DNA of 20,000 nucleotides, taken from the IMG/VR virus record IMGVR_UViG_2850639881_000002. One strand, written 5' to 3'. Position numbers and translations under genes: made by a program. Below the pieces are notes generated by a model. The model was not told the DNA's origin, made no database searches, and saw only the letters and a list, made by a program, of their open reading frames with translations. The first letter of the stretch is position 1, and each line of letters starts with the position of its first letter. Positions 336-18,261 of this stretch are shown here, piece after piece. This DNA comes from an uncultured virus (IMG/VR IMGVR_UViG_2850639881_000002). Taxonomy: Duplodnaviria > Heunggongvirae > Uroviricota > Caudoviricetes.

Positions 336-1217
336 ATGACGATCAATGCAAATAACTGGAATACGACCCAGTTCGCCAACCGGGCGATGCACATCTACCA
401 GCAGAAAGGCAACCGCCTGCGTCCGACCGTGACCCAGGCGATCCGGATCGAGAACAACGAAAAGGCCGTTTTCTGGCTTGCCGGCAAGACCAAGGCGAAG
501 AAGAAGACCCGCCGCGAACGCAATATTCCGGGCAACGGCGAGCGCAAGAAATTCGAAGCCGCGCTCGAGACCTGGGTCGCCTTCGACACCGTCGAGGAAT
601 ACGACGTCGACCGCATGAGCGTGGACGAGAAGGAAATCGTCTACGAGAGCGGCGCCAATGCCCTCGGCCGCGCCACCGACATCGAGCTTTACGCAAAGAT
701 GAACGCCGCGATCGCATCGGGCGCCGTCCCCGCCGAGCTCGATTTCTCCGCCGGCGCTTTCTCCGCCGCGAACGCCTTGATGCTCTGCAAGCACCTGCAG
801 GACGACAAGGTGGCGTGGGACGGCAATGTCTATTGCGGCCTGCCTGCGTTGCAGTGGAACCAGCTGCTCGCCAACAAGATCGTCAATTCCGCCGACCATG
901 TCGGTTCGGATCTGCCCTTCGTGAAGGCGACCGACACCCGTTTCTGGAACGGCGTCAATTGGTTCCTCTTCGTCGAAGAGGATGCCCAGGATCTCTATCC
1001 CGTGCCCTCTGCGAACAAGCAGGACTTGTTCATCTGGCACAAGACCGCACTCGGCTGGGGCAACAACACGGATCTCCGCGTCATCACTCAGTGGGACAAC
1101 TACGAGGACTGCTGGACGGTCAACATGCAGGCGAAGGGCTGCGCCACCACCCTGCAGGAAGGCAAGGGCATCAAGCGCTTCCGCACCTCGTCGAACAGCG
1201 CGATCGCCGTCGTCTGA
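336..1217 (+). CDS. Major capsid protein
   Basis: 293 aa, GGAG RBS at 322-325. Motifs F...(M)HIYQQKG.RLR, ALGRATD, FWNGVNWF and HKTALG resemble podophage capsid proteins. Position between scaffold and tail tube genes fits. Confidence 0.85.
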   Translation: MTINANNWNTTQFANRAMHIYQQKGNRLRPTVTQAIRIENNEKAVFWLAGKTKAKKKTRRERNIPGNGERKKFEAALETWVAFDTVEEYDVDRMSVDEKEIVYESGANALGRATDIELYAKMNAAIASGAVPAELDFSAGAFSAANALMLCKHLQDDKVAWDGNVYCGLPALQWNQLLANKIVNSADHVGSDLPFVKATDTRFWNGVNWFLFVEEDAQDLYPVPSANKQDLFIWHKTALGWGNNTDLRVITQWDNYEDCWTVNMQAKGCATTLQEGKGIKRFRTSSNSAIAVV

Positions 1218-1630: not shown

Positions 1631-2260
1631 ATGGCCTTGCTGACCGCGATCGACATCGTGAACGCCGCGTTCAACCGCATCGGCGAGACGCCGATCGAGA
1701 GTTTCGACGACGACGGCGAAAGCGAGCAGGACGCATCCCTGATCTATGAGGACGTCGTCGACTTCAATCTCGGCCTTCAGCCTTCCGGCTTTTCCTTCGC
1801 GCGCGAGGTGCGGCAGCTGTCGAAGCTCTCCGGCGCCACTCCGCTGACAGGCTACACGAACGTCTTCGACATTCCCGGCCCCTATACCGGGCTGCCGATT
1901 TTTCTCAGCGACGACATCACCGATCCCGATCGGCGGTTCACGGCTTTCATCTTGACGGGCGGCCAGGTGCATTCCGACGCCGATCCGCTTTTCGCCATGG
2001 TCAAATTTCGGCCGGATCCTCACCGCTGGACCGCCACCTTCCGCTCCGCCACGATCGCGGCGATCGCCTCGCGCCTGGCGTTCTCGGTTGCATCGGACCG
2101 CGTGACCTCTGAAGCGCTCCGCACGGAGGCTTACGGCACTCCCTCCGAAAACTTCCGCGGCGGCATGATGCGCACTGCGCTGGCCGAGGATGGCTTTTCC
2201 AATCCGCCGCGCAAGCCCGACGTCGACAGTAACCCACTCACCCGAGCCTGGAGAAGCTGA
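1631..2260 (+). CDS. Tail tubular protein A / adaptor (T7 gp11-like), 209 aa
   Basis: AGGAG RBS before ATG 1631. N-terminus T.IDIVNAAFNRIGETPIESFDD, plus FSFA and LA...A patterns typical of adaptor proteins. Synteny. Confidence 0.8.
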   Translation: MALLTAIDIVNAAFNRIGETPIESFDDDGESEQDASLIYEDVVDFNLGLQPSGFSFAREVRQLSKLSGATPLTGYTNVFDIPGPYTGLPIFLSDDITDPDRRFTAFILTGGQVHSDADPLFAMVKFRPDPHRWTATFRSATIAAIASRLAFSVASDRVTSEALRTEAYGTPSENFRGGMMRTALAEDGFSNPPRKPDVDSNPLTRAWRS

Positions 2261-4290
2261 TGGTCGCGCGTCCTGGTCGGCCACAAGCCGCTTTCACCGC
2301 CGGCGAGCTCGATCCGCTGCTGCACGATCGCACGACGCTAAAGTATTTCTCGACCGGCCTGCGCCGCGCCGAGAACGTCGTCATGCTCGCCCAGGGCGGC
2401 TTTCGCCTTCGAGACTACACCCGCCACGTCGGTGCCCTCCTATCGAACGCGCAGCGCATATTTCCCTTCGCCGCCTCGAACGGTTCCGCCTTCGACCTGG
2501 TCATGGCTGGCGACAATTGCCAGGTGTGGGGAGCGACGGCAAATCTTGCCTCGTTCACGATCAGCGGCGTCGGATCGCTGCTTGGCGAAGTCACCGACGC
2601 ACAGCAGTTCGATACCATGCTGCTGTTTCATGAGGATCTCCGATCGAAGCGGATCCGCCTCACGAACACGGGGTGGGTGGTCGATGATCTGCCCTATGAA
2701 GAAATCCCCAACTATGACTATGGCGGCGTCTACACCAACGGCGTGCCAGCAAAATGGCGCCTTGAGTTCGTCGGCCTGGCCGCCACGACTACGACCTTCG
2801 TGCTCACTGTTTCCGGCCAGGAAACGCAGTCAATCGCCTACGACAGCACAATGGCGACACTGGCCGCTACGATCAAAACAGCGGTTGAAGATCTGCCGAA
2901 TGTCAGCGCCGGCATAACCGTGGCGGCAGGATCCGGATCGACAATCACGATCGAATTCACGGGCGCCGGCAACGAGGGCGACGGCTGGGCGGTTTCCGGC
3001 CGCGTCATCAACAAGGCCGATGCAGCCGTGCTGGCAGTCAAGCAGGTCGCAGGCGTCATTCCCGGCGAACCGGTGATCTCGACGACGAAGGGTTGGCCCC
3101 AGTGCGGCGCCTTCTACGGCCAGGCGCTTTTTGTCGGTGGGCTCAAGTCGCTCCCGAATGCCTGGATGCGATCGAAGGTCGGCGACTATTTCAACTTCGA
3201 CCAGCGCTTCACCGAGGCGAACGGGCCCTTCCTCGTGCCTATGGACATCGCCGGCGGCGAGAAGATCGAGCGGATTGTTCCTTCGCTCAATCTGCTGATC
3301 TTCACCACTCAGGCGGAATACTGGATCGCCGAGCGAGCGATCTCCAAAACTCAAGCGCCGAACCATGTCCAGGCGTCTCGCCACGGCTGCAAACGCGGCG
3401 TTCCGATCGTCGAGAACGAGGGCGCCGCGATCTGGTGCCACGCCAACGGCGCGACGATCGGCGAGCTCAGATATACCGACGTCGAGGGCAATTTCGTCGG
3501 CACGGATATTTCGCTGCTCGCCTCTCATCTCCTCACGGACGTCCGCGACATGGCGGTACGGCGCGCGACCGAGACAATGGACGGCAACGTGCACGCGATC
3601 GTCCTCGGTGATGGCAATGCGCGCCTGGTGACGATGTTGCGAGAACAGGAAGTCACCGCCTACACCCGGCTGACGACGGACGGTCTCGCGAAGGCCGTCG
3701 CTCGCAATGCCAGAAACGATCTTTCATGGATCATGGAACGGGGTGGGCAGCGCTTCCTCGAGCGCATGGAGGCGGGCCTCCTGCTCGACGAGGCGCAGGA
3801 TTTCAGCTTCGGCCCTGCATCCGATACAATTACCGGGCTTTCTCGGTTCAATGGTCGCCAAGTTTGGGTCATCGGCGACAGCGACGTCTTCGGGCCTTAT
3901 ACCGTCGCCGACGCCTCCCTCAAGCTTCCGATCGCCGTCTCGGCCGCCACCGTGGGGACTTGGAAACCGCCGATCATCGAGACGCTTCCGCCGCCGCGCG
4001 ACGTCGGCCCGAACGTCGTCTTGAAGCGCAAGGCCAGGATCCACACCGTTCACATTTCGCTCGTCGATACGACCAGCGTCGCGATCTCGACGAACGGCAA
4101 GGCCGTGCGCAATGTCGAGTTGGCCCGGTATGGTGCCTTTGCCGACGTGCCCGAGCTCGAGCAGGGCTTCACCGGCACGATCAAAATTTCCGGATTGAGA
4201 GGCTATGCCGACGATCCCTTCGTGACGATCAGCCAGGTGCGCCCGGGTAGACTGAACGTCAGGGCGATTACCGTCGAGACTGCACTATAG
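2260..4290 (+). CDS. Tail tubular protein B / nozzle (T7 gp12-like)
   Basis: 676 aa, TGATG overlap with the previous gene. Hallmarks Q.AFTAGELDPLL..R.....Y......ENV....QGG, GWP....FY...L, SKVGDYFNF. Confidence 0.85.
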   Translation: MVARPGRPQAAFTAGELDPLLHDRTTLKYFSTGLRRAENVVMLAQGGFRLRDYTRHVGALLSNAQRIFPFAASNGSAFDLVMAGDNCQVWGATANLASFTISGVGSLLGEVTDAQQFDTMLLFHEDLRSKRIRLTNTGWVVDDLPYEEIPNYDYGGVYTNGVPAKWRLEFVGLAATTTTFVLTVSGQETQSIAYDSTMATLAATIKTAVEDLPNVSAGITVAAGSGSTITIEFTGAGNEGDGWAVSGRVINKADAAVLAVKQVAGVIPGEPVISTTKGWPQCGAFYGQALFVGGLKSLPNAWMRSKVGDYFNFDQRFTEANGPFLVPMDIAGGEKIERIVPSLNLLIFTTQAEYWIAERAISKTQAPNHVQASRHGCKRGVPIVENEGAAIWCHANGATIGELRYTDVEGNFVGTDISLLASHLLTDVRDMAVRRATETMDGNVHAIVLGDGNARLVTMLREQEVTAYTRLTTDGLAKAVARNARNDLSWIMERGGQRFLERMEAGLLLDEAQDFSFGPASDTITGLSRFNGRQVWVIGDSDVFGPYTVADASLKLPIAVSAATVGTWKPPIIETLPPPRDVGPNVVLKRKARIHTVHISLVDTTSVAISTNGKAVRNVELARYGAFADVPELEQGFTGTIKISGLRGYADDPFVTISQVRPGRLNVRAITVETAL

Positions 4291-4299
4291 GAGGCATGC

Positions 4300-4869
4300 A
4301 TGGAGCTTGCGGTCGCGGCTTTGGGGAAGGTTTTCACGGGGCTCGGGCTCGCCGGCGCCAGCGCTGGCGGAACGGCTGCTGCGACTGGCGCGACAGCGGC
4401 CGCCGGCGGTGCTGCTGCAGGATCCGGAGCGCTTAGCGCGCTGCAGGGCATTGCGACAACGCTCAAGGTGCTCGGCGGCATCGGTGCCGGCGTTGCAGCC
4501 CGCAACGAGGCCGAGGACGCGGCGGTCCAGACGGAGCTGCAATCCGGCCAGGAGCAGTTGCAATCCACCCAGCGGCAGACGTCGATGAAGCGTGAGCTCG
4601 CCCGTGTGCTCGGCCAGAACGACGTGATCTATGCCGCAGCCGGCATCGACCTATCCGGCGGCATCGCGCAGCAAACGGCGGCCGAACAGAAGGCGCGCGC
4701 CACAGACGAGATCTCGATCGAGCAGCAGGACAGCGAGTTCCGTCGCGCTCTCTATCGTCTTCGTGCCAGGGGCCAGCGCTCCGCCGGCCGATCGGCAATG
4801 CGGGGCGCCCTGATCGGCGCGATCGGCGACGTTGCGCAGTATGGCATGGATGTGGGGAACCGCGGCTGA
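4300..4869 (+). CDS. Small internal virion (ejection) protein, T7 gp14-like position
   Basis: 189 aa, AGGAGG RBS, Ala/Gly-rich hydrophobic N-terminus, Gln-rich helix and YAAAGIDLSGG motif typical of this class. Confidence 0.7.
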   Translation: MELAVAALGKVFTGLGLAGASAGGTAAATGATAAAGGAAAGSGALSALQGIATTLKVLGGIGAGVAARNEAEDAAVQTELQSGQEQLQSTQRQTSMKRELARVLGQNDVIYAAAGIDLSGGIAQQTAAEQKARATDEISIEQQDSEFRRALYRLRARGQRSAGRSAMRGALIGAIGDVAQYGMDVGNRG

Positions 4870-7460
4870 TGGCAAACAAGCAAGTTCGCAATCCGGGTCA
4901 GATCGCCCGCTTTGAGGAGACAGGCCGGATTTCCGCCGACGTTCCAGCTTTTGCGGTGGATACCGGATCCGCCGCTCGAGCGCTGGCGAGCGTCGCCGGC
5001 GGCCTCTCGGAAAATCTCGCCAGGCTCGCCGATCGGGCGGCCGCCCGTGAGGGTGAGCTCGCCGGCCTCTCCGCCGGCGCACAATCCGGCGCCGCCTATC
5101 TGCAGGCCCGCGCGACCGACGAAGCGGCCGCAGCTTCGAACAGGGGCCCTGGCGTCATGGTTCGGGCGCCGGGCGAATTGCGCAAGATCGTGTCCGACGC
5201 CGCTACCCGCCACGGCGTTGATCCGGGCGCGCTGCTCAAGATCGCGATGATCGAGAGTTCCTTCAATCCGAAGGCGAAGAACCCGAGCTCGAGCGCCGGC
5301 GGGCTGTTTCAGTTCGTCGATGAAACGGCGCGACAGTATGGCCTGGCCGATCGCTTTGATCCGGCCCAGGCCGCCGACGCGGCCGCCCGCCTGGCGAAGG
5401 ACAACGCGGCGCATCTGAAAAAGGTGCTCGGCCGCGCGCCGACTGCCGGCGAACTCTACCTTGCCCACCAGCAGGGCGCCGGCGGCGCCGCAAAGCTATT
5501 GAAGAACCCGAACGCCCGCGCCGTCGACCTCGTCGGCGCCAAGGCCGTTCGTCTGAATGGTGGTTCGGCCGACATGACCGCCGGCGCCTTTGCCAATCTC
5601 TGGATGAGCAAGGCAGGCGGCGGCGCGGCTGTCACCGATCCAACGACGACCGCCTCCGTCGCCAGCACGCCCCTGTCGCGCGAGCCGCTTGCACTTCGCC
5701 GCGATGGCACTATCCGCGGCGAGGCCTTCGACGATGCGGCCGCCTCCGCTTATGCCTGGCGCATGCAGGAAGGCCTTTCACGCGACCTTTTCGCGGCCCA
5801 GGCTGAATTCGAGGATGACCCGGCCGGCTTCGTCGCGGCCGCCGACAAGATCCGCAGCAATTACCTGCAGGACGAGGCTCTCGCGGATCCGCGCATGCGG
5901 GAGGGTTTCGATAAGTATTTCGCCCAGCGGTCGGAAGCGTACAGGGAAAACATCGTTGCCCGGCACGAGCGCCGCTTGCGCGACGAGCAGGAAGCGTCTT
6001 TCGCCAGCGGCTACTCTGCGCAGCTCGTCGACCTCGAGCGCCAGGCGCAGGTGCTCGGCGCCAACCCGAAGGGCGACCAGCTGATCGGCGACCAGGTCAG
6101 AACTTTCCAGGCGTCGATCGACGGCGCCGTTGCTTCCGGCACACTGTCGCCGGCGCAGGCGGAAAAGTACAAACTCGAGGTCGCGGAGACGGCCGCTCGA
6201 GGCCGGATCCAAGGCGTCTATGATGCTCTGCCGACGCCGGAGCGGAAGCGCGAGTTTGCGCTTTCCGTGCTCGACGACTGGCGCGAAGGCGAAGGGCCGC
6301 TCGCTGCCCTGCCTTACGACACCGTTCGCGGCATCACCGACAGCCTGCGGCGCGATGCTCAAAGTCAAGTCGAGGCGGCCCGGGCGGCCAACAAGGTCGA
6401 GGCGGCCCGCCTTACCAGCATGATCGACGACGACGTCGAGAGCATCACCTCGAGCGGCAAGGGGCTGCCAGGCGGCGCCGACGGTCTCGACCCTGCCAAG
6501 GTCGGCCAGGTGCTCGGCGCGGAGAAGCTCGCCGATTGGCAACTGAAGCGTGAACGCGCCGGCCGGATCTATGACGCGACCTCCGGCATGGAAACGCAAA
6601 CAGCCGAGGATATCGCCGAGCGCCTGGCGCTCCTGACGCCGAAAGCCGGCAGCATAGGTTTTTCCGAGCAAGCCGACGCGTTCGAGGCGGCACAGAAGAA
6701 GGCTTCCGCGGTCCTGAAGGCGCGCGCTGACGATCCGGCGGCCGCCGTTGAGAAGGCCTTTCCCGATGTCAAGCAGCTGGCGGCCGACGCAAACCCGCAG
6801 GATCCGGCTTCCATGCGAGCCCTCGTTTCCGCTCGCCTCCAGGCGCAGGACGCGATCGGCGTTGCCGAGCTCGCGCGCGAGCCGTTGACCCAGGCGGAGG
6901 CCAAAAATCTGGCGCGATCGGTCAGCCTGCAGCAGGATCCGAAGCTGCAGTCCGACGCGATCTTGCAGCTGGTCGACCAGGTGAGCACGGCTTATGGACC
7001 TCATGCCGAGCGCGTTCTGACGCAGGTTCTCAGTGTGCAGGGCATCGACAAGGAAATGGCCCGCAATGCGGCCGCCCAGTTCCGGCGGCTGTCAAAGGGT
7101 GGCGCCGTGACGACGAGCGATCGCCGCCAGGCGAAGGTGCTCGACGAGACGGCCGTCGCCGAGAGTTCGGCGCGGCCTTCGATGATCGGTGCGATCGAGG
7201 CCGGCGCGACGGCCGCACGCGCCGCGTCTGCAGGCAACAACCGAGTGGGCCCGGTCACCGGGCCGACCGGGCGCGCGGACAATCCGATGGAAGTGGTGCC
7301 CAGCCCGGCGCGCCAGTCGACCGATATGAGCTTCCCGGCGCGGCCGACGCTCGCGAGCATCCAGCATCTCAAGGAAAATCCGCAGCTCGCGCCCCAGTTC
7401 GACGCGCTCTTCGGCGAAGGTGCGGCCCGTCTCTACCTGCCGCCGGCAACAGGCCAGTAA
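4869..7460 (+). CDS. Internal virion (ejection) protein with SLT-type lytic transglycosylase domain
   Basis: 863 aa. IESSFNPKAKN..SSAGGLFQF...YLAHQQGAGGA motifs (about 5175-5615, putative catalytic Glu codon 5253-5255), long helical body, C-terminal LKENPQLAPQFDALFGEGAA motif. Confidence 0.85.
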   Translation: MANKQVRNPGQIARFEETGRISADVPAFAVDTGSAARALASVAGGLSENLARLADRAAAREGELAGLSAGAQSGAAYLQARATDEAAAASNRGPGVMVRAPGELRKIVSDAATRHGVDPGALLKIAMIESSFNPKAKNPSSSAGGLFQFVDETARQYGLADRFDPAQAADAAARLAKDNAAHLKKVLGRAPTAGELYLAHQQGAGGAAKLLKNPNARAVDLVGAKAVRLNGGSADMTAGAFANLWMSKAGGGAAVTDPTTTASVASTPLSREPLALRRDGTIRGEAFDDAAASAYAWRMQEGLSRDLFAAQAEFEDDPAGFVAAADKIRSNYLQDEALADPRMREGFDKYFAQRSEAYRENIVARHERRLRDEQEASFASGYSAQLVDLERQAQVLGANPKGDQLIGDQVRTFQASIDGAVASGTLSPAQAEKYKLEVAETAARGRIQGVYDALPTPERKREFALSVLDDWREGEGPLAALPYDTVRGITDSLRRDAQSQVEAARAANKVEAARLTSMIDDDVESITSSGKGLPGGADGLDPAKVGQVLGAEKLADWQLKRERAGRIYDATSGMETQTAEDIAERLALLTPKAGSIGFSEQADAFEAAQKKASAVLKARADDPAAAVEKAFPDVKQLAADANPQDPASMRALVSARLQAQDAIGVAELAREPLTQAEAKNLARSVSLQQDPKLQSDAILQLVDQVSTAYGPHAERVLTQVLSVQGIDKEMARNAAAQFRRLSKGGAVTTSDRRQAKVLDETAVAESSARPSMIGAIEAGATAARAASAGNNRVGPVTGPTGRADNPMEVVPSPARQSTDMSFPARPTLASIQHLKENPQLAPQFDALFGEGAARLYLPPATGQ

Positions 7461-7517: not shown

Positions 7518-10500
7518 ATGGCAGACGAGGAAATCGGCGGCATCAATCCCTTCACCGCGTTTCAGCAGCAGCAGGACGCCACGGTCGAGAACCTCGATCC
7601 GGGGCTCCTCGATCGCTTCTGGACAAACTTCGAAGCTGGCCAACGACACAACACCGTCCTCGGCGCCACCTACGACGCATCGACGCCCAGCCGCCAGGAA
7701 GAACGCAAGCGCTTCGACCGCTCCTATGAGACCTATCCGGAGTGGGACGGCCTCCTCGAGGGCGGCGCCGCGCTCTCCGGCCAGATCGCCGGCACGGCGG
7801 CAAGTCCGGAAAACTTCATTCCGATCGGCGTGGGTGAAAAGATCGTTGTCGGAGCAAAGTCGGCCGTCACTGGCATTTGGGCCCGGATTTTCTCCGGCGC
7901 CGTCGACGCCGCGGCCGCCAATGCCGTTTCTGACGCGGCCATTCAGGGGATCGAAATCCAGTCGGATTTCCGCGAGCAGTTTGACCCGGTCCAGTATGGC
8001 GCGGGCATCCTCCTCGGCGCGGGCATCGGCGGCGCCGCCGGCGGCGCTGGCAAGGTGATCGGTGATCGCACCGGTCGCGCTGCGACCATCGACGAGGCAG
8101 CTCCGAGCCAGGCGGCTGAGGCTCCGGCCGACAATCCCTTCTTGCCTCTTCAGCAGGCGCAACCCGCCAGCGGTTCTCCTGAACCCATAGCGCGGCCGGC
8201 CGCCGCCGAACCTGCGCCGGCGCCGGTCTCGCGTCCTGCCGCAATCGAGCCAGCGCAGTCCGCCGCGCCCGCCGATACGATCGGCGAGACGCTTTCGGCC
8301 AAAGCGTCAGAGGCTCGAGGACTTGCAGTGCCTGCCGACCAGGTCGATCGCGTTGCAAAGAGTGCCGTGGACGTCGGCAAGGCGCCGAGGCGGCCGCAGT
8401 CCCTGACTGACTTCCTCGCTGCAGAGGGCGGATTGCGGGACGACGGCGGCGAGCTCGCCGCGATGGGCGTTTCGCGGAAGTTCGTTCCCGGGCGCGGTGC
8501 ACTCGTGCGCGCCGGCGGCCAAGAGCTCGACAAGGCGAGAGAGGCTGCGGCGCAGGCCGGCTACTTCAACCACCTTTACGGATCCGCGGACGAGGCGACG
8601 GCGAAAAGCACGGTGCGCGACCTGCTCGACCTGGTCGACCAGGAGAACCGCGGCAAGCCGGCATTCAGCATGGCGGAGGCCGATCGCGTGGCCGCCGTGC
8701 AGGACTATGAAAACGCACTGACGGCGCGTGACGACTATCGATCCTTTGTCGACCGGATCGCCACGACCCTCAATGAGATGGACGCCGGCGTAACCCTTGA
8801 TGATGCTGTCCTTGCCCGTGCAACCGACATCATGATAAACGAGAAGTTAGACCCGCTCGACGCATTCGATCGGGCAATTCTCGAAGAAGAGGCACGCCTC
8901 GAGGCGGCAATAGCGGAACGTGGTGGCAGCGATGGCAGCAGCAAATCAGACGCAATCCCCTTCTTCGACGACGAGCCAGCCGGCGGATCTGCTCAAGCGG
9001 GCGGCCGCTTGGGAGGAGCGCAGCAAGGCGGCGGATCCGGAAGACGCCGCGCACATGCAGCGGACGGCGAACAATCTCCGGCTGCTGGCGGCTCTGCGCG
9101 AGCAGAAGACGGCGTAGTTTCCGGCGAGCGGGCGCTGATCGAGACCGCCCGGCAAGAAAAGCAAGCAGGCGATTTCCTGATGGCGCAGCCGCTCACCGGC
9201 TTGCGCGCACAACGCACGCGATCGGGCGCGATCGCCAAAGGCGCCGTTGAGCGCATTGCCAGGGTGAGCGAGACTGCCGAGGCTCTTGCCAAGGCGCTCG
9301 ACGTCGCGGCCACTCGACAGGGCCGGATCTCCGGCGGCAAGCGGGTGCGCGGTACCTTTGACACGCGCGACAGTGTGGTGCGCGTGCGATCGCTCGACGA
9401 TTTCGACGTGCTGACCCATGAATACGGCCATCACCTGGACGCGAAGATCCCGGCGGTGAAGGCCTTCATTAGCAAGCATTCTGCCGAGCTCTCGAAACTC
9501 GACTATGATCCTGTCGCCGGCCGCGACTATGAAGGCTTTGCCGAGTTCTTCCGGCTCTACCTCACCAATCGCGCCTATGTCGACGCGAACTACGCGCCGA
9601 TCGCCGCCGAGTTTCGCCAGGTGCTCGACCAGGTGCCGGAGATGCGCGACGCGATCGACGCGGCCACTCAAGCGTGGGACGCCTTCCTTTCGGCCCCTTC
9701 GTCCGTGGCGGTGCGATCGACCATCGTTTCCGCGAAAAAGGAAGGATGGGTAGCCTCCGCCGCAAAGGAGCTCAAGAAATCGGGGCTCGGCGGCACGATC
9801 GCCGACGTCCTGCAGCGGATCTACACTTTCGCCTTCGATGACCTCAATCCGATCAACCGGGCCGTCTCCTATCTGCAGGATCTCCATCTCGAGAACAAAG
9901 GAAAGCCGCTCGATCTGAAGGTCACGGCGGATCCGTACAAGCTTGCCCGCATGTCCCGGGGTGCCTATGCGGCCGGGCACATGGATGTGATGTACGGCGT
10001 CGCGCCCTACCGCGGCATTCATCCGGCAAGCCCGTCGCTGCGCGATGCGATCATCGAGGCGACCGGCAAGCCCAACGCAATGTCCGGCTGGGATGAGGAG
10101 AAGGTCGCGGAGTTCGGCTCCTATCTCTGGTCCAGGCGCGCGATCGGCGAGTGGGAGCGATATCGCAAGGGCGAAATTCCGAACCCTCCAGACAAGCTCA
10201 CCGAGGCGGATCACGTCCAGAACGTTGCCGACCTCGAGGCGGCAAACCCTGCTTTCGTCTCGGCCGCGGCGAAGGTGCACGAGTTCTCTCGAGCGCTTTG
10301 GCGGAAGAAGCTCGAGGCAGGCCTGATCGACCAGACGACCCACGACGAGGGCCTGTTGATGCGCGACTATGTGCCGGGCCTGCGCGATTTCTCGTCAGAT
10401 ACCGACACGAAGGTGCCGGCGGGACGGTCGAAGGGGAAGACGGCAAAGGGCGGTTTCGCTCGCCGTTTCAAGGGCTCGAAGCGCGATGTCATCAATCCGC

Positions 10501-12824
10501 TCGAGAGCTTGGCGGCCGACGCCTATGAGACCGCCATGGCGATCGCGCGCAATGACGTTGTCAAAGCGCTGCACCGCCTGGCAGTCAATGCCGGAGAAGG
10601 CGCCGGCAGGATCGCCGAGATCATTCCGGCGAAAGAGCTGCGCGCCTCGATGATCGACCCGCTCGAAGCGATCGAGAACGCGGCCAAGGCCGCCGGCCTC
10701 TCCAAGCCCGATATCGTCGTATTGCGCGACGCGGTCGAAAGTGCTGTCGGTTCGGAAAAGGCCGCCGTCTTCCGTCCGGCGATCATCAACGAAAAGGGCG
10801 AGCCGATCGCCTTTTTCCGCGACGGCGGTCAGCTGAAGGCGCTGCGCCTGGCGGACGGTCAATTCGGTCTCGACATGTATCGGACCCTCGTTGCGATGAG
10901 CCAGCACGAGAAAAACTTCTGGCTCGAACTCGTCGCAATCCCCGCGCGGGTCCTGCGTGCCGGCATTACGACGTCGCTTGAATTCATTGGTGCGAACTTC
11001 GTCCGCGACCAGGCAATGGCCTCCGTCTACTACGGTAAGCCGCTGCAGCGGATCGCCAGCACTTTCCGCGGCGGCTTCGACGAGGTGACCGGAAAGGAAA
11101 TCGCGCGCTCCTATTCGCGCGTCTACGGGATCTCCGGCGGCAGCGAGACGGCCTCGCTGTCGAAGGCGATGGCGAAGCGGGACATTTCCGCGCTCAAACG
11201 CAAGGGCTGGATCGCGCAACGCTTCACCTCCTTCCGCGGCGTGCTCGAGGCAGTCGAGATCTCCGAGACCGCGACCCGCCTCGGCCTGTTCCGGACGTTC
11301 CAGCAGGAAGCCAAGGCGCGCGGTCTCAGCGAGCATGAGGCGCTGTTCGAGGCGGCCTACCGCGCGCGCGACTATCTCGATTTCGATCGACGCGGATCCG
11401 GCATGGCGGCGCTGGCGCGCGTCATCCCCTTCCTCAATGTCGCGCTGCAGGGCCTCGACAAGGCTGGCCGGCACATGATTATGCCCGTCGCGCGCAAGGT
11501 GCTCGGCCAAGCCACCTCCACCGAAGACGCCAGGGCGGCCGCGCTCGCGGCCAAGACGTGGGCGCGCCTGGCTGTGCTCGTGACCGGCTCCGTTTCCCTT
11601 TACGCTCTGATGAGCCGGCACGAGGACCATGACGAGATCTCGGAAACGACCAGGTCGACGCATTGGATGGTGAAGACTGGCGATCGGTGGACGGCCATTC
11701 CTAAGCCGTTCGAATTCGCCGTCGCCATCAATCTCGGCGAAGCAATGTTCGACACCATGGTGCGCAAGGATCCGTCGGCGGCCGGGCGCTGGTGGGACAG
11801 CCTGTCGACGACGCTCACGCCGCCGTCTCTCCTTGAGGGCAACCCAGCGATCAAGAGCTATTTCGAGCTCAAGTCGAACAAGAACTTTTTCACCGACGCG
11901 CCGATCGTGCCGGAGCATCTGCGCGGGATGGAGCCGTTCCTGCAGTACACCGAACGGACTTCCGCCTTCTCCAAGCAGCTCGGCGATATCTTCAACGTCT
12001 CGCCAGCCGTCAGCGATCACCTGATCACTTCCTTCGGCGGCAGCTGGGGCCGCAATCTTCTGTCGCTCTACGACCTGGCGCAGCCCGACGCGCCGGCGGC
12101 CGGCTGGGACGATGTGCCCTTTGCCCGCCGCTTCATCAAGGATGCCGCGAAAGGCGCGCAGTCGACGACGATGTTTTGGGAGCTCGCCGGCGCCCAGGAA
12201 GGAAAGCTCGAGGGCAAGGCCTTGAGCTGGCGCGAGCTCGCCGAGGCTGGCGACGCCGCAGGTGCTGCCGACTTCTTCGCGGGTCTCCACCAGGTCGAGA
12301 AGGCCTATGTCGCAGTTTCCACTCACGAGGCGAAGGTGAAGCGTCTTCATCCGATCATCCGCGCCCGCGGCGCCATCCAGGCGATCGGCGCCATGCGCCG
12401 CGAGCTCGCGGCCAATGACGTCCGCGACGCAGACGGTGAAGCGGTCTCGGTGAGCTCGGCCGAGCGCGGCGCCGCCGACGATATCCTTTCTGACCTTTCT
12501 ATGGTTGTCGCTCGCAACGCGCTGCGAGAGGCCGGTGTTTCCGGATGGGCCCAGCGATCGGAGATCGACGAGACAGGGTACTACCGCGAGCTCGAGGCAC
12601 TGAACCCCGCCCTTATCGATCGACTTGGCAGCGGCTATGCCGGCAAGAAGGTATGGAACTGGGAAGCGGTCAAATCCGCCTGGCCGGATCTGCGCGATCG
12701 TCTCCTCGAGGAGGGAAGCAACGCGACCGTCGACGACCTGGTCGCAGACGTCGAGAGCCAGGGGTTCGCGGTCGACGGCGTGAAGGCAAAGCGGCGGGAA
12801 AAGCCGGAGCTCATCCCCGGTTGA
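7518..12824 (+). CDS. Large polyvalent/ejection protein with zincin-like HExxH module and LPD38-like C-terminal region
   Basis: 1768 aa. THEYGHHLD (HEYGH 9417-9431) with downstream EGFAEFF. DF.R.G....L...IPFLN..LQG, IPKPFE (11697-11714) and PIVP..L...P..QY patterns resemble LPD38-containing phage proteins. Position before the tail fibre fits. Confidence 0.8.
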   Translation: MADEEIGGINPFTAFQQQQDATVENLDPGLLDRFWTNFEAGQRHNTVLGATYDASTPSRQEERKRFDRSYETYPEWDGLLEGGAALSGQIAGTAASPENFIPIGVGEKIVVGAKSAVTGIWARIFSGAVDAAAANAVSDAAIQGIEIQSDFREQFDPVQYGAGILLGAGIGGAAGGAGKVIGDRTGRAATIDEAAPSQAAEAPADNPFLPLQQAQPASGSPEPIARPAAAEPAPAPVSRPAAIEPAQSAAPADTIGETLSAKASEARGLAVPADQVDRVAKSAVDVGKAPRRPQSLTDFLAAEGGLRDDGGELAAMGVSRKFVPGRGALVRAGGQELDKAREAAAQAGYFNHLYGSADEATAKSTVRDLLDLVDQENRGKPAFSMAEADRVAAVQDYENALTARDDYRSFVDRIATTLNEMDAGVTLDDAVLARATDIMINEKLDPLDAFDRAILEEEARLEAAIAERGGSDGSSKSDAIPFFDDEPAGGSAQAGGRLGGAQQGGGSGRRRAHAADGEQSPAAGGSARAEDGVVSGERALIETARQEKQAGDFLMAQPLTGLRAQRTRSGAIAKGAVERIARVSETAEALAKALDVAATRQGRISGGKRVRGTFDTRDSVVRVRSLDDFDVLTHEYGHHLDAKIPAVKAFISKHSAELSKLDYDPVAGRDYEGFAEFFRLYLTNRAYVDANYAPIAAEFRQVLDQVPEMRDAIDAATQAWDAFLSAPSSVAVRSTIVSAKKEGWVASAAKELKKSGLGGTIADVLQRIYTFAFDDLNPINRAVSYLQDLHLENKGKPLDLKVTADPYKLARMSRGAYAAGHMDVMYGVAPYRGIHPASPSLRDAIIEATGKPNAMSGWDEEKVAEFGSYLWSRRAIGEWERYRKGEIPNPPDKLTEADHVQNVADLEAANPAFVSAAAKVHEFSRALWRKKLEAGLIDQTTHDEGLLMRDYVPGLRDFSSDTDTKVPAGRSKGKTAKGGFARRFKGSKRDVINPLESLAADAYETAMAIARNDVVKALHRLAVNAGEGAGRIAEIIPAKELRASMIDPLEAIENAAKAAGLSKPDIVVLRDAVESAVGSEKAAVFRPAIINEKGEPIAFFRDGGQLKALRLADGQFGLDMYRTLVAMSQHEKNFWLELVAIPARVLRAGITTSLEFIGANFVRDQAMASVYYGKPLQRIASTFRGGFDEVTGKEIARSYSRVYGISGGSETASLSKAMAKRDISALKRKGWIAQRFTSFRGVLEAVEISETATRLGLFRTFQQEAKARGLSEHEALFEAAYRARDYLDFDRRGSGMAALARVIPFLNVALQGLDKAGRHMIMPVARKVLGQATSTEDARAAALAAKTWARLAVLVTGSVSLYALMSRHEDHDEISETTRSTHWMVKTGDRWTAIPKPFEFAVAINLGEAMFDTMVRKDPSAAGRWWDSLSTTLTPPSLLEGNPAIKSYFELKSNKNFFTDAPIVPEHLRGMEPFLQYTERTSAFSKQLGDIFNVSPAVSDHLITSFGGSWGRNLLSLYDLAQPDAPAAGWDDVPFARRFIKDAAKGAQSTTMFWELAGAQEGKLEGKALSWRELAEAGDAAGAADFFAGLHQVEKAYVAVSTHEAKVKRLHPIIRARGAIQAIGAMRRELAANDVRDADGEAVSVSSAERGAADDILSDLSMVVARNALREAGVSGWAQRSEIDETGYYRELEALNPALIDRLGSGYAGKKVWNWEAVKSAWPDLRDRLLEEGSNATVDDLVADVESQGFAVDGVKAKRREKPELIPG
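8932..9117 (+). CDS. Putative overprinted small helical protein (61 aa) in +1 frame inside the polyvalent gene
   Basis: GGTGG 5 nt before ATG 8932. 38 of the last 44 sense codons end in G/C, while the main frame drops to about half and becomes Gly/Ala/Arg low-complexity. Confidence 0.6.
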   Translation: MAAANQTQSPSSTTSQPADLLKRAAAWEERSKAADPEDAAHMQRTANNLRLLAALREQKTA

Positions 12825-12871: not shown

Positions 12872-15043
12872 ATGAGCGTCGTTCTACCCATCAACGAAGA
12901 TGACCGTTTCCGCATTCTCACTGCATCAGCCGGGCAGACCCTTCTGGCGATCACGTTCCCCTGGCAGGATGACAATGACATTGTGCTGTTCAAGAAGGTC
13001 ATCGGTGAGTGGGTGGAGCTCTCTCGCCCTGAAGACTACACCCTTTCTGGGGCTGGAGCGTCGGGTGGCGGAAGCGCAACGCTGACGACGCCGGCGATCG
13101 CCGGCGAGGAGTATCTGGCCCTCGGGTCCGCGGTGCTCGATCGCCTCTCGTCGATTGTCCGCGACGGCCGCTTCAATTCGAAGACCGTCGACGACGAGCT
13201 CGATCGCAACCGCATCATCCAGCAAGAGCAGGCCCGCGATCTCAAGCGGGCCTATCTCGCTCCTGTCGGTTCCACTGGTGGCGAGGTCCTGGCTTCCGAG
13301 CCTGGGCAGTTCCTGATCCGTGATCAGGACGGCAACATCGTTGGCAGCGATCCGCCCGATGGCGCCGGAAACATGAATACCGGCATCTATGATCCGCAAA
13401 GCGTGGGTGGCGATGTCTTCGATCAGATGAACTGGGGGCACTTCCCGAACATTGCCACCTTTATGGCGTTCGCACCGGCCGGCTTTGTCTCGTTTGCAAC
13501 CGTCTACGGCTACTATCTTCCTGGCGACTGCCCCCTGATGACATTCCGTCGCGTCGCCTCGCAGCCGAACCACAACGGCAAGATACAGACTGCCAACGGC
13601 GCTTGGTGGGAACTGAAGGTTTCCAAGGCCGATATCCGCATGTTCGGCGCGAAGGGTGACTATGTCACTGACGATCTAGCCGCAAGCGTGTCTTGGCTCG
13701 CCTTCTATGAAATGACGGGCACGCCACTCACCATGTCGCGCGGTATCTACAAGTGCACGAACAATCTTGTTCTTCCGAAGCGGGTCATCATCCATGGCGA
13801 TGGTGCCCCGAGCATGGCATCGTTCCCGCAATTCGACGAAGGCGACAAGTCGAATATGCGGCCAGGGTACAAGGCCAACATCAAAGGCGCGGCGTTCATC
13901 TTCAGCGGCGCTCCAACGAACGCCTACACAACGACCCGCGGCGACAAATTCGCTTCGACGAAGCCGTGCCTGCTCTACGATCATTTCGCACCTCCGGAAT
14001 TGACCGGCTTCGGCATCCTCCAGGATATGGACATCTTCGACGCCGCCGGGAACCTGACGACCGGAGCAACCGACAATAAGGCCGCGCTCTATACTGGCGG
14101 CCTGCTTTCCCGCGCTACGCTCTCCCGTTTCCGCGAGCTGACCATTTTCGGATACTTCGCGAACCAGGGCGCCATCGCCGTCAACAAGCTCGGCGATCTT
14201 CCGGCGGGGGCGAACGACCCCGATTATCAATCGTTCAATGGCTGCTCTATTACTGGCGGCGTTGCGGTCATCGGCGGCGACACCGCTACGCCTCTTAGCG
14301 AAGGTAATACCGGAACCCGCTTCACGGATTGCTGGATCTATGGGCCGGACCATCACACGCGCGCCGATACAAATCCGGCCATTCCTTGCGTCTATATCGA
14401 CATGGCGCTGACGACGACGCAGCAGGGCCGCGGCGTTCACTTCTCGAACTGCAATCTGCGCACCGTCGTCAACGATGCGATCAAGCTCGACCATGCAAAT
14501 GACTGGTCTTTCTCGAACTGCGCGACCGAATTTTCGGAAGTTGTCGGCGTCACAGGCCTCGATCAGCGAGGCGAAATCAAGGGAACCGCCAACACGCAGG
14601 GCGGCTCCATCATCAACGTCGCGGCTACCGGCCACCTCGGCTTGCGCGCTCTGAAAAACCAGATCGAAACGAACGGCTTCAATCTGAATGTTATCGGCAC
14701 GGCAAACGCCAGCTTGGCATCGATGCTCAAGGTCGAAGCGGTGACTTATAAGGGCGGCGGCACTATTGCCGTTGCATCGAGCACGATCGTCCCGACGACG
14801 AGCTATCATGTTATCGACGCGACCGGGAACCCTACGATCACGACGATCGACCTGACGAACATTGCCGAAGGCCAGATAATGGAATTCCGCAAGACCAACA
14901 CGGGCACCGTCACTTTCCAAGAAAGCGGCGGCAACTTGGCGATGAACGCCGCAACGGCGGCCCTTGGTGCTCAGGCGGACGTCATCTTCTTCCAGCGGGT
15001 CGGATCAAACGCTTACCAGCACTACTTCTCCGACAACGCATAG
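12872..15043 (+). CDS. Tail fibre/tailspike with T7-type N-terminal anchor and pectate-lyase-like beta-helix (putative polysaccharide depolymerase)
   Basis: 723 aa. N-terminal GQT...ITFP...DYTLSG.G...GG..TL anchor, GYY.PGD and MFGAKGDYVTDD motifs that open tailspike beta-helices, repeated F.(N/D)C strands. Confidence 0.8.
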   Translation: MSVVLPINEDDRFRILTASAGQTLLAITFPWQDDNDIVLFKKVIGEWVELSRPEDYTLSGAGASGGGSATLTTPAIAGEEYLALGSAVLDRLSSIVRDGRFNSKTVDDELDRNRIIQQEQARDLKRAYLAPVGSTGGEVLASEPGQFLIRDQDGNIVGSDPPDGAGNMNTGIYDPQSVGGDVFDQMNWGHFPNIATFMAFAPAGFVSFATVYGYYLPGDCPLMTFRRVASQPNHNGKIQTANGAWWELKVSKADIRMFGAKGDYVTDDLAASVSWLAFYEMTGTPLTMSRGIYKCTNNLVLPKRVIIHGDGAPSMASFPQFDEGDKSNMRPGYKANIKGAAFIFSGAPTNAYTTTRGDKFASTKPCLLYDHFAPPELTGFGILQDMDIFDAAGNLTTGATDNKAALYTGGLLSRATLSRFRELTIFGYFANQGAIAVNKLGDLPAGANDPDYQSFNGCSITGGVAVIGGDTATPLSEGNTGTRFTDCWIYGPDHHTRADTNPAIPCVYIDMALTTTQQGRGVHFSNCNLRTVVNDAIKLDHANDWSFSNCATEFSEVVGVTGLDQRGEIKGTANTQGGSIINVAATGHLGLRALKNQIETNGFNLNVIGTANASLASMLKVEAVTYKGGGTIAVASSTIVPTTSYHVIDATGNPTITTIDLTNIAEGQIMEFRKTNTGTVTFQESGGNLAMNAATAALGAQADVIFFQRVGSNAYQHYFSDNA

Positions 15044-15296: not shown

Positions 15297-15977
15297 TCAC
15301 TTAATGTTCGTTATCACGCATACGAGCTGGCTCGCCCGGTTCCTTCGACAGTCGATCCGGGCCAACCTAGCGCCTGGACAGTAGCGCCAGAATAGGGCCA
15401 GCCAAGCAGAAGGCGGCATCACGGTCAGGTGACTGTGTCCATCATCGTAGCAGGCTATGACATGGTACTGCAGGGGTGAAGAGGAAACACATTTGGCGAC
15501 AACCTTGGCGAGGTCCGAAGGCGCGAAATGCTCAAGAACGTCGGCGGAGCAAGTGATGTCCCCGCCCGGGATTTTGTCCTTCGTCACGTCGGCTCGCCGG
15601 AAGAACACGTTCTTGGGCCGGTCTACGAACTGAGGCGACAAAGCCCAATCCACTGCATAGACCTTGCGAACGCTGCCAGCGATCTCCTTTGAAAAGGCGC
15701 CATTGCCGCAACCGATCTCGACTACGATCCTCGCATTCGACGCTAAGATCGTTTGCTTCTCCGCCAGCAGCCAGTTGTTTTCCTGATAGCCAGCGTCCTC
15801 TTCGTGAAGGTGCTGGTAGTACGATGCATCGATTGTGGAAGAGCGCTGACGTGGGAGCACTACGGTCTTTGCGACCAGGCTGGTAAGAGGATCTTCGATC
15901 CTCCAACCTGTTTTCATCAACAGTTCTGCTTGCCGAGTCTCTGCCGCGACGAGTGCTTCCTCAACCGCCGACAGCAT
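15297..15977 (-). CDS. Class I SAM-dependent methyltransferase
   Basis: VVEIGCGNG (motif I), VYAVD, ADV, D.....DVLEHF. Start uncertain (15977 overlapping the upstream gene, or 15917). Confidence 0.85.
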   Translation of the reverse strand: MLSAVEEALVAAETRQAELLMKTGWRIEDPLTSLVAKTVVLPRQRSSTIDASYYQHLHEEDAGYQENNWLLAEKQTILASNARIVVEIGCGNGAFSKEIAGSVRKVYAVDWALSPQFVDRPKNVFFRRADVTKDKIPGGDITCSADVLEHFAPSDLAKVVAKCVSSSPLQYHVIACYDDGHSHLTVMPPSAWLALFWRYCPGARLARIDCRRNRASQLVCVITNIK

Positions 15978-18228
15978 CAGATGCGATCCGGCGGGCGGCG
16001 TTATCGGCCCGCATCTGGAGGATGATGTCGATCAGATCTTCGATCTCGATCAGCTTGCCGGTGTCGGGATTGAGGTAAACGGACTGATTGATACAGGCCA
16101 CGTGAAATAGCTCCTCGATAGTTCTCCTCTGGGAGCGTCTTTGGACCGGGCTGCGGTCGTCGGTCAATCCCCATCCGGAGTAAAAAGGCGCTCCGAAGGT
16201 TACCACTTCCTTGCCGCGCATCAGGCCCTCGAAGCCAACCTGGGACGAAACGGTGTAGATCTTGTCGCAGCGATCGATGATAGAGCCGATCGTCACTTCA
16301 TCCGGCAACACCGTGATCTCCCCAATGTTCCTGTTGCGGTAGGAATTCATGTTTCGCTGGATGCTGTCGGGGTGCCTCTTGAAGTAGATAGGCCTGCCGG
16401 GGTTTTCTTCGACAGCCGCCTCGAGCATGCGATGGAAGCTATAGTCATTGGCGCCGGCGAACTGGATGGAGGCGTCTCCCTTCTTCTGATCGATCACCAG
16501 GACAGCGCCCGGTTCTATCTCGAACTCCGCACCTTCGACATATTTGTTGTACTTGGTGATCCCCTCTGCGCAGATCCTATTAATGACCGCGCGGGCGCGT
16601 CTTGCTTCCTGATCCGTTAGGACGAAGTCCGGACTATTGAGGGTCTTCTCGATGCGTGACGGCTGGCGGGCGTCGAAATAATAACCGAGATCATCGATCA
16701 TAAAGCCAAGGGCGCGGCGCTCGTTCAACGTCGCGTCTGGGTCAAAGTATGAGGCGAATGCACCGAAGAGGGCTACCTCGGTGAAGTAGAGCGGCAGATC
16801 GTAGAGATAGGCAGTGTCGACGCAATCCCAGAACATGTCCTGTTCGATGCGCTGCGAGAGCAAGAAAACTGCGTCCGGCAGACGATCGGTGAAAAAGGTA
16901 AAGTGCGAAGTCTTCGTCAGCGTTTTGATGTTCTCGGCATAGCCTCCTTCCATGTCCTTCTTGAAAACATTGGACATGATCACCGAATTGGCAGGCAGCG
17001 CTTCGATCATGGCGCGGGCGCTGAAAGCCGCGGGAGCGTTCGCAGATCTGCTGACTAGGATGTTCTTCAGGGTGACGCCTAGATTTGCCGCCTGGGCGGC
17101 CTGCGCCTTTGCTGCCGGTGCAGTCTTCTTCTCCAGGGCCTCGAGCCGCCGCTCGAGCTTTCCCACTGCCAGCCTAGTCTTCCGGATCCGGGTAAAGCTT
17201 ACGACAGTTGCGGGGACGATGACCGTCAGGAATTTGCCCAGAGTCGTTTTCTCCGCGGCGGCTTTTTTGTTGGTCTGCTTCGGTTTGGCGGCCGGGCGCG
17301 GCGCCTCGAGCCTTTCAGGCTTTGTTATTTCCTGCGCGTACGGCGTCAGGGCGAGATAGTCGAACCACTCTTCTGCCCGTGGGTGTTCGAGCGACATCCA
17401 TGGTTTCCGCTTCAGAGTATAATGGATAATGGCCGGATCGGTGATCGCTGCCTTCGCCTCTGACCTATCCATGTAGTTCTCGATACCAGCGACCTTGTCG
17501 ACCCAGTCGGGCTTGAACATCGATCCGTGCACGTTCCATTTCACCGGAAGGTACTTAATCGAGCCGAAGAAGAGTTCGGTGATGATCTGCTGGTCTCCGA
17601 GCACCAGGCGATAGCGGTTGCTTTCGAGATAGCGCTCGACGAGCTCGCTGAAGCCGATCGCGCGCATCAGGTCGACGTTTACGAGCAGGACGCCAGCATT
17701 CGGGTGTTTGGCGCTCTCTGCCAGGCCGAACTTGGCATTATACGTCCTGGAGATGGTATCCTCGACGCCGGCGAAGAGCGCGCCGTCGAAGGGCGTTGCA
17801 AACAGTTCGTCGATCGAATTGCGAATGATGAGGTCGCTGTCGAGGTACAGCACCTTGCGGGCGTCGACTGGCAGGAGCTTGTGCATCAGTAGACGATAAT
17901 AGGTCGCGATCGAGATGCCATCAGAGGTCTTGATGTTCTTGAACAAGCTGGCGTCAACAGGGATCTCGTGCAGCTGGAAATCGCAAAGAGAGCGCAACGC
18001 ATCAATCTTTGCGCGCTCGGTCTCCGGTAGCGGTTTGTCGATGAGCACGAACACGCGAATTGCCTGCCGTCCGGTGTAGCTCTTCAATATCGATGCGAGC
18101 GTGACTGCAGTAAAGCGGATGTATCTCTCGTCCGACGCGAAGACCAAATCGACCGTTTCCTGAACTGGCTCAATGTGGCCGGCAGCTTTAATGCGCTCGA
18201 AGGCGACAGGGCTGAGTGCGAGAGACAT
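15961..18228 (-). CDS. Fusion of family 8 glycosyltransferase (N-term) and KpsC/RkpZ-like capsular polysaccharide (beta-Kdo transferase, GT107-like) domain (C-term)
   Basis: GT8: FASDERY, TYYRLL, KVLYLDSD, NAGVLLVN, GDQ, IIHY...KPW. KpsC-like: DDLGYYFDARQPSRIE, ITKYN, VLVIDQ..GDASI, KRHPD, YTVSSQVGFEGLMRGK.V..FGAPFYSGWGLTDDR. GGAG lies 8 nt before ATG 18228 (alternative start 18234). Confidence 0.9.
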   Translation of the reverse strand: MSLALSPVAFERIKAAGHIEPVQETVDLVFASDERYIRFTAVTLASILKSYTGRQAIRVFVLIDKPLPETERAKIDALRSLCDFQLHEIPVDASLFKNIKTSDGISIATYYRLLMHKLLPVDARKVLYLDSDLIIRNSIDELFATPFDGALFAGVEDTISRTYNAKFGLAESAKHPNAGVLLVNVDLMRAIGFSELVERYLESNRYRLVLGDQQIITELFFGSIKYLPVKWNVHGSMFKPDWVDKVAGIENYMDRSEAKAAITDPAIIHYTLKRKPWMSLEHPRAEEWFDYLALTPYAQEITKPERLEAPRPAAKPKQTNKKAAAEKTTLGKFLTVIVPATVVSFTRIRKTRLAVGKLERRLEALEKKTAPAAKAQAAQAANLGVTLKNILVSRSANAPAAFSARAMIEALPANSVIMSNVFKKDMEGGYAENIKTLTKTSHFTFFTDRLPDAVFLLSQRIEQDMFWDCVDTAYLYDLPLYFTEVALFGAFASYFDPDATLNERRALGFMIDDLGYYFDARQPSRIEKTLNSPDFVLTDQEARRARAVINRICAEGITKYNKYVEGAEFEIEPGAVLVIDQKKGDASIQFAGANDYSFHRMLEAAVEENPGRPIYFKRHPDSIQRNMNSYRNRNIGEITVLPDEVTIGSIIDRCDKIYTVSSQVGFEGLMRGKEVVTFGAPFYSGWGLTDDRSPVQRRSQRRTIEELFHVACINQSVYLNPDTGKLIEIEDLIDIILQMRADNAARRIASDAVGG

Positions 18229-18261
18229 TCTCATTTCTCCATGGATTTTTTCCGTGGAGCG

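Follow-up and report, generated by a model that had tools for sequence, protein, structure and literature searches.

A small gene probably embedded in the +1 frame of a podovirus-type ejection-protein gene

We analysed a 20,000-nucleotide (nt) stretch of an uncultured virus of the Caudoviricetes (IMG/VR record IMGVR_UViG_2850639881_000002), hereafter called the window, and conclude that its positions 8932–9117 very probably hold a genuine gene for a small protein, nested in the +1 frame of a much longer gene for an ejection protein of 1768 amino acids (aa), hereafter the host gene. Comparison with related sequences indicates that the embedded frame is kept open under purifying selection on its amino acids in about seven lineages of Rhizobiales-associated podovirus-like phages and prophages; the host frame over the same bases is a Gly/Ala/Arg-rich linker with almost no sequence constraint. 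The features of this locus are as follows.

7518–12824, plus strand: host gene, encoding a 1768-aa internal-virion (ejection-type) polyvalent protein (HExxH motif, LPD38, phrog_9854)
8370–8933, plus strand: conserved all-alpha module of the host protein (PRRPQSL...AAQAGYFNHLYG...AFDRAILEEEA; alignment A7, 62–94% identity to the window)
8911–8913, plus strand: TAG closing the +1 frame upstream, six codons 5' of the nested ATG
8922–8926, plus strand: weak Shine-Dalgarno-like motif GGTGG, 5 nt before the ATG, shared by the window and its relative L003
8932–9117, plus strand: nested open reading frame (ORF) of 61 codons and a TAG stop, read +1 relative to the host frame
8955–8978, plus strand: host-frame motif IPFFDDEP, overlapping the nested codons for SPSSTTS
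8980–9111, plus strand: part of the nested ORF coding for a predicted two-helix hairpin (AlphaFold2, helices at residues 17–33 and 36–60)
9115–9117, plus strand: stop codon TAG of the nested ORF, formed by host codons GTA and GTT

Substitutions inside the nested ORF follow the phase of the nested frame. IMG/VR contains one close relative of the whole gene (L003 = L001; 86% nucleotide identity, with no indels here), and between it and the window the changes at host codon positions 1/2/3 number 94/44/574 over the whole gene, 85/41/571 outside the ORF and 9/3/3 inside it. At third positions, 33.5% of sites differ outside the ORF and 4.8% within it (Fisher p 1e-7), and the excess inside shifts to host position 1, which is nested position 3. 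An independent pair, L057 and L061, behaves in the same way (83/37/319 changes outside and 8/5/2 inside; third-position rates of 45.7% and 3.4%, p 4e-12). L057 and L058 differ by two changes, both of them synonymous in the nested frame and nonsynonymous in the host frame. Nei–Gojobori ratios of nonsynonymous to synonymous rates (dN/dS), the frame-specific check proposed in an earlier reading of this DNA made from its sequence alone (hereafter the original prediction), are 0.23 for the nested frame and 0.98 for the host frame between the window and L003, and 0.19 and 2.30, respectively, between L057 and L061; these close pairs have no gaps. Purifying selection on the embedded frame and suppressed synonymous change in the host frame are thus found together.

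The same conclusion is reached by an alignment-unbiased test, in which profiles of the same 126 bases were built for each sense frame from five seeds and scored on four held-out sequences (L061/L069/L076/L077). The hairpin part obtained 72.0/57.4/20.4/14.6 bits in the nested frame, compared with 39.6/19.4/−1.5/−0.9 bits in the host frame and 34.2/24.0/5.1/1.1 bits in the third sense frame (which has stops in six out of nine sequences). Selection on the nested frame, as the original prediction had it, is therefore borne out by the phase of the substitutions in two close pairs, by the best held-out conservation and by 10 homologous ORFs (see below).

The original prediction had proposed a 61-aa peptide at this place, and exactly this peptide is obtained from the ATG at 8932 to the TAG at 9115–9117. 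Its compositional observations could also be reproduced: GC content at third codon positions (GC3) of the nested frame is 38/44 in the helical part (codons 18–61) and 48/61 overall, and five codons that are rare in the rest of the host frame (GGA, AGA, CGA, CAA and TCT) account for 13 out of 63 host codons over the nested ORF and for 44 out of 1706 elsewhere. For codon positions 1/2/3, GC is 0.68/0.49/0.78 in the whole host gene; in the nested region it is 0.79/0.67/0.54 when read in the host frame and 0.68/0.55/0.79 when read in the nested frame. Among the 11 alternative-frame ORFs of at least 50 aa in the host gene, only the nested ORF has an own GC3 (0.79) above that of the host frame (0.55).

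The length of the ORF alone is within chance expectation: the host gene has five ATG-started +1 ORFs of at least 61 aa, and 500 codon shuffles gave an average of 5.9 (the window as a whole has 132 ORFs of at least 50 aa). A chance open frame in GC-rich DNA over an unconstrained linker, with no gene at all, would agree with this count, with a probability of ∼0.26 that 68 codons stay open (estimated from 35 stops in 1768 +1 codons) and with the lack of a family match for the peptide. But an unconstrained linker should vary fastest at host third positions, and in both independent pairs these change 7- to 13-fold more slowly than in the rest of the gene. Linker status alone fails to explain this pattern, because another low-complexity linker of the same protein (8076–8262), used as an internal control, has raised nonsynonymous change and normal third-position change (23–25 third-position changes per 186 nt). 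Moreover, the +1-frame amino acids are conserved even in relatives whose host-frame linker is unrecognisable, as are the ATG at the start of the ORF and its homologous end, and the related loci diverge by as much as about 50% in the host module, which speaks against recent copying among them. We consider chance a highly improbable explanation.

The local host-frame segment, followed by alignments built on it, served as the query in the search for relatives of the module. Module and nested ORF were found together in viral contigs (L052/L057, L053/L058, L055 and L056), in metagenomes (L060 and L061) and in Rhizobium leguminosarum Tri-43 (L069); in all of these the +1 ORF is clearly homologous and 57–58 aa long (e.g. 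MSQTMKTSPSSTSRQQALLNRAALLERKSETATPELAEQMKKSAINLKVLAKLHETA). In total, homologous +1 ORFs of 57–63 aa are present in 10 distinct sequences, which come from viral contigs, one metagenome and three bacterial genomes. In all 10 carriers the ORF lies wholly inside a longer ORF on the same strand with both frames open; the +1 register does not vary, the ATG is conserved and the ends are homologous. The original prediction named stops or indels in this frame at homologous loci as evidence against a gene, and they are absent from every relative having this linker. A search of the six-frame ORFs of all loci with a five-member profile recovered the held-out L061 (E-value 5.3e-25) and L069 (2.7e-21), the best unrelated match having an E-value of 0.065. 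Applied to 401 genomes from the family of L069's genome, the module profile gave 12 module carriers; two of them (L076 and L077) have weaker +1 homologs in the same register (E-values 3.5e-6 and 2.4e-3), which share the end motif A-x-N-F-x-[IV]-L-A-x-L-K.

The nested ORF was never found without the module, which is located directly upstream of it; 16 other distinct module-bearing sequences have neither the linker nor the nested ORF. On the module tree, the 10 carriers and the 16 non-carriers are on different sides of a branch (one change of state), a split that no label shuffle out of 500 equalled, although support for the branch is weak (62/26); the nested ORF may thus have arisen once and been retained afterwards. 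The ORF moves with its module between different host-protein architectures: in L055, L057, L061 and L069 it makes up the C-terminal half of a ∼750–800-aa protein that sits between an SLT protein and a phrog_684 virion protein, and in L056 it lies within an ORF of at least 2898 aa. The short-type hosts (e.g. L057, at about 4700–4867) have a second motif, LLDFIPVEDGDGN, ∼90 aa after EDIPFFDE and before the conserved C-terminal end (...SCKL), and relatives without the nested ORF have a single IPFFDD near that conserved end; linker and ORF may therefore sit in a duplicated or inserted segment.

Gene callers have independently annotated members of this family: profile search found P0003, P0005 and P0006, and P0003's 90% cluster includes P0013 (RefSeq WP_183927844.1), a 52-aa 'hypothetical protein' of Rhizobium mongolense with a different N-terminus (it has no SPSS). 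In 50,697 phage records there was no match to 8300–9700 by blastn or to the nested peptide by tblastn, and one match to the host module (an unannotated record, 39% identity). The 86%-identical contig was the only match in a tblastn search of the first 49 loci with the peptide and in viral-contig scans with the window peptide and with P0003; a genus-level genome search with the peptide profile, in which only the top candidates per genome were scored, gave one out of 173 genomes, an already known carrier.

The constraint is partitioned along the ORF: the host frame governs the first ∼16 nested codons and the nested frame the last ∼44. The host motif IPFFD(D)E lies under the first ∼16 nested codons and is also found in relatives without the nested ORF (L065, L066 and L071); L056 keeps the host IPFF by a host-synonymous change from CCC to CCA, with the nested residue altered. 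Over IPFFDDEP, it is thus the host frame that is constrained. The remainder of the host frame (8980–9114) forms a linker of 46 aa, 14 of them Gly and 11 Ala, whose sequence is not conserved.

Both ends of the nested ORF depend on minority or rare host codons. In nine out of nine sequences, a T-ending Asp or Asn codon and the G that starts the next codon together give the ATG (these host genes use T-ending Asp/Asn codons in 38% of cases), and a TAG is found at the aligned stop position in seven out of seven sequences by means of the rare host codons GTA and CTA (GTA is found once among the 63 codons of the nested region and four times among the other 1706). The GGTGG that the original prediction proposed as a ribosome-binding site is present. 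In relatives, Shine-Dalgarno-like motifs are located 8–10 nt upstream: GGAGG in L069, GAGGG in L057, L058 and L061, and GGAG in L056. The +1 frame is open from 8914, with alternative GTG starts at 8920 and 8923. The 35 bases 5' of the nested ATG (8897–8931) have no substitutions relative to L003, against a gene-wide rate of 13%; the second close pair has three changes in the 25 bases before its ATG, and the upstream invariance is therefore not general.

These signals bear on another way of reaching the nested frame, which the original prediction had mentioned: ribosomes may leave the host frame by a programmed shift of +1 (or −2) and so make a short ejection-protein isoform with the hairpin at its end. 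The same purifying selection on the hairpin would be expected, no separate promoter was found in 8500–9400, the Shine-Dalgarno-like motif of the window is weak, and in L055, L056, L057, L061 and L069 the +1 frame is open for 18–29 codons upstream of the ATG. On the other hand, the tail of such an isoform needs no ATG, yet the ATG is kept in all nine sequences through a minority codon choice, and GGAGG or GAGGG is located 8 nt upstream of it in L069, L057 and L061. In the window and L003 the +1 frame opens just six codons before the ATG (the TAG at 8911–8913 limits the place for any shift into the nested frame), and the +1 residues upstream of the ATG are dissimilar between lineages. The sole shared candidate site, CCC TTC (in IPFF), is not conserved, being CCA in L056 and replaced in L077, and the locus has no known +1 shift motif with a stop or rare codon. 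Lambda G/GT and T7 10A/10B are programmed-frameshift C-terminal extensions that use a second frame in a late structural gene; the shift there is by −1 at a conserved slippery site, and neither extension has its own start codon, whereas the nested ORF has a conserved ATG and no conserved shift site. We therefore regard a frameshifted isoform as improbable, and less likely than independent initiation.

Suppression of synonymous change alone leaves the nature of the overlapping function open, and it could also be due to a non-protein element (structured RNA, a DNA signal or a packaging signal) or to an antisense gene; an antisense ORF of 465 aa (8946–10343) has its third positions in phase with those of the nested frame. 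However, RNAalifold found no conserved structure in seven sequences (−3.45 kcal/mol, with an unfavourable covariation term of +1.29), and the changes recur with a periodicity of three bases that matches the phase of the nested frame, which argues against a non-protein element. Of the antisense frames, the one phase-matched to the nested third positions is interrupted by stops in eight out of 10 sequences, and the one on the same triplets, with stops in two out of 10, is out of phase with the substitutions; beyond 9117 the long antisense ORF has an ordinary host-frame substitution pattern. Antisense genes were rejected because of the stops, and constraint from any of these sources is barely credible.

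Several points weigh against a protein-coding gene. Each close pair rests on just 15 substitutions inside the ORF, and a pooled phase test against a flat one-third null gives a p-value of only 0.007; the dN/dS values come from a peptide alignment made in the nested frame, a choice that gives this frame an advantage in distant pairs. The nested ORF is absent from 15 further full-length relatives of the host gene in IMG/VR (44–70% protein identity), which have other N-terminal modules and cannot be aligned upstream of the motif DFLMAQP. The GGTGG of the window is a weak motif, and L055, L076 and L077 have no canonical core. The original prediction noted an AT-richer stretch upstream that may hide an internal promoter: GC is indeed 0.58 over 8760–8930 and 0.65 in the whole host gene, but a sigma-70 consensus scan of 8500–9400 found no promoter-like site (nor did a terminator scan of the same interval find a terminator-like site). 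Finally, the peptide gives no functional clue, as it has no match in Pfam, PHROGs or NCBIfam.

The predicted product of the window's ORF is a 6.6 kDa peptide with an isoelectric point of 8.3. AlphaFold2, run on an alignment of seven sequences (A6), predicts a disordered N-terminus and two helices (residues 17–33 and 36–60), in agreement with the two-helix hairpin originally proposed; the mean predicted local distance difference test score (pLDDT) is 78, and about 90 in the helices. Neither the window's peptide nor the seven aligned members contain Cys, and the invariant residues are M1, S9, S11, S12, L20, R23, M42, N48, L49, L52 and L55. A Foldseek search of the predicted fold against the PDB found nothing at an E-value of 0.001 or better, and the best scores in the ESM Atlas were 0.80 or lower. 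Profile positions 20–44 (RAxxLxExSxxADPxDA) give many weak repeated matches to TPR-like repeat proteins, and the second helix matches designed single-chain antiparallel coiled coils (E-value 8.5e-5). Among the long TPR-like repeat proteins matched (P0004 and P0007–P0012), summed E-values go down to 7e-21, each single stretch being weak. When eight family members were scanned with Pfam at E-values up to 10, no TPR family was found, and the spacing from the DP turn to the NL motif differs from that of TPR repeats. The likeness to TPR and coiled-coil proteins is one of composition and fold type, with no homology shown.

Overprinted genes are well known in small viruses, with phiX174 B, K and E and many cases in RNA viruses among them. 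Features shared with the nested ORF are two coding frames, suppressed synonymous change in the host gene and a narrow family distribution; here, in contrast, the genome is that of a large double-stranded DNA (dsDNA) tailed phage with no obvious size pressure, and the overlap is confined to the linker of a modular protein. The arrangement is that of the spanin genes lambda Rz/Rz1 and T7 18.5/18.7, in which the smaller gene is entirely contained in a larger one, shares its strand, is read in its +1 frame and has an independent start; such embedded genes are usually missed by gene callers (PMC6139136). Unlike these, the nested product has no Cys, lipobox or signal peptide, its host is an internal-virion/ejection protein and no i-spanin, and there is no sequence relation between them. 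We therefore rejected an o-spanin (Rz1-like) identity, given the lack of a lipobox Cys in the window and seven aligned members and a host that is an LPD38 internal-virion protein. The embedded product is predicted to be structured and the host frame disordered, which is the reverse of the tendency of such genes as cited in PMC6139136 from Rancurel et al.

The host gene itself resembles genes for podovirus ejection proteins (T7 gp14–gp16) and LPD polyvalent proteins in its gene order (SLT protein, very large protein, fibre-like gene); ejection proteins are described in PMC8954989 and PMC8605104. A difference is that the ORF-carrying module matches no family. The ejection-protein review has zero occurrences of 'overlap' and of 'reading frame' and mentions no embedded gene, and a full-text literature search within one collection found no embedded gene described in genes for ejection or polyvalent proteins.

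If the nested ORF is expressed as we propose, ribosomes would initiate independently at the internal ATG on the late structural mRNA, perhaps aided by the G-rich Shine-Dalgarno-like motif. The product would be a 57–63-aa protein with a disordered, Ser/Thr/Gln-rich N-terminus, whose sequence would be dictated by the host IPFFD motif, followed by an antiparallel, coiled-coil-like hairpin of two helices. As to its role, our best but tentative suggestion is that the protein is a small partner of its ejection-protein module (a helper in folding, packaging or assembly, or a virion component), made together with the ejection protein. It is more doubtful whether the hairpin gene is the dominant and possibly older frame, over which the linker was written, and whether its product is a dedicated partner of the module, translated from the mRNA stretch that they share, and a cis-encoded helper (chaperone, plug or inhibitor) of its own client that keeps the ejection protein packaged or inactive until injection; in that equally doubtful case, the gene would travel with the module as polyvalent proteins get reshuffled. 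The original prediction had also suggested an inhibitor of the neighbouring domain, which is disfavoured if the downstream HExxH/LPD38 part is meant, because the ∼750–800-aa hosts (L055, L057, L061 and L069) end ∼100 aa after the nested gene and have no HExxH/LPD38.

Alternatively, the gene may be real and unrelated to the ejection protein, e.g. a lysogen-expressed immunity or exclusion factor (another of the original suggestions) or a host-takeover protein for which the linker is just spare room to be encoded in. At least three carriers are in bacterial genomes in a prophage-like setting (L069 in R. leguminosarum Tri-43, G217 and G449), overprinted viral genes are often accessory (PMC8227390 and PMC6195259), and a step in contig depth in one RNA-library run (X2) starts just upstream of the ORF, at 8794/8861, although these are contig data and no proof. 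However, the ORF lies amid a block of late structural genes on the same strand, the scanned interval has no promoter-like site, and the peptide has no PHROG match (an anti-defence library was not searched); such an unrelated role is unlikely.

Four RNA-library runs of one study contain this stretch in the form of contigs, which indicates its presence only and is no evidence of transcription; one of these contigs, 35 kb long and identical to the window, may be source DNA. Two raw-read RNA runs with the same species label gave zero reads, which says nothing either way on expression. In run X2, the contigs break at 8794–8861, and the mean contig depth goes from ∼4.9 (8366–8794) to 61.3 (8861–10467); these are contig depths from a reverse transcription PCR library and no evidence of a transcript start.

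Beyond the spanins, well-supported out-of-frame embedded genes in tailed dsDNA phages are few, and annotation pipelines discard such genes. The nested ORF has unusually clean comparative support, and it combines a predicted structured product with a disordered host linker in the poorly understood ejection/polyvalent proteins. If translated, it would be a new component of podovirus virion assembly or genome delivery, and it would imply that the linkers of giant phage proteins can hide genes. Carrier prophage-like loci in sequenced bacterial genomes, e.g. R. leguminosarum Tri-43, provide a test bed.

The window is part of a 25,863-base virus record and contains a podovirus-type late gene block on the plus strand. 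Besides the host gene, this block consists of the following genes.

336–1217, plus strand: major capsid protein
1571–2260 and 2260–4290, plus strand: two tail-tube-like proteins
4300–4869, plus strand: small ORF
4869–7460, plus strand: internal virion protein with SLT domain
12872–15043, plus strand: fibre-like (tail-fibre-like) gene

The host gene thus follows the gene for the SLT-domain internal virion protein and precedes the tail-fibre-like gene. Its assignment to the polyvalent LPD38 proteins is based on PF18857 at residues 1369–1536 (E-value 2.6e-46; 158.5 bits, with a gathering cut-off of 27). The upstream module (8370–8933) has no family in Pfam, PHROG or NCBIfam; AlphaFold2 predicts it to be all helices with a mean pLDDT of only 68. 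No Pfam family covers the part of the host protein with HEYGHH (HExxH; 9417–9434), although this motif is identical throughout the alignment of 16 full-length sequences (15 relatives besides the window). In L002 (= L013, 48% identical) the big gene is split, in the linker region, into two overlapping frames of 518 aa and 1237 aa (about 4158–4326 of L002, i.e. 9158–9326 of L013), which could be a frameshift, a sequencing error or two genes; the other 15 full-length relatives (15 out of 15) have a single ORF. On the minus strand, 3' of the fibre-like gene, 15297–18234 codes for two proteins, one of 757 aa that combines glycosyltransferase family 8 with a capsule-synthesis domain and a methyltransferase-like one of 226 aa; it is possible that these two genes are cargo altering the host surface.

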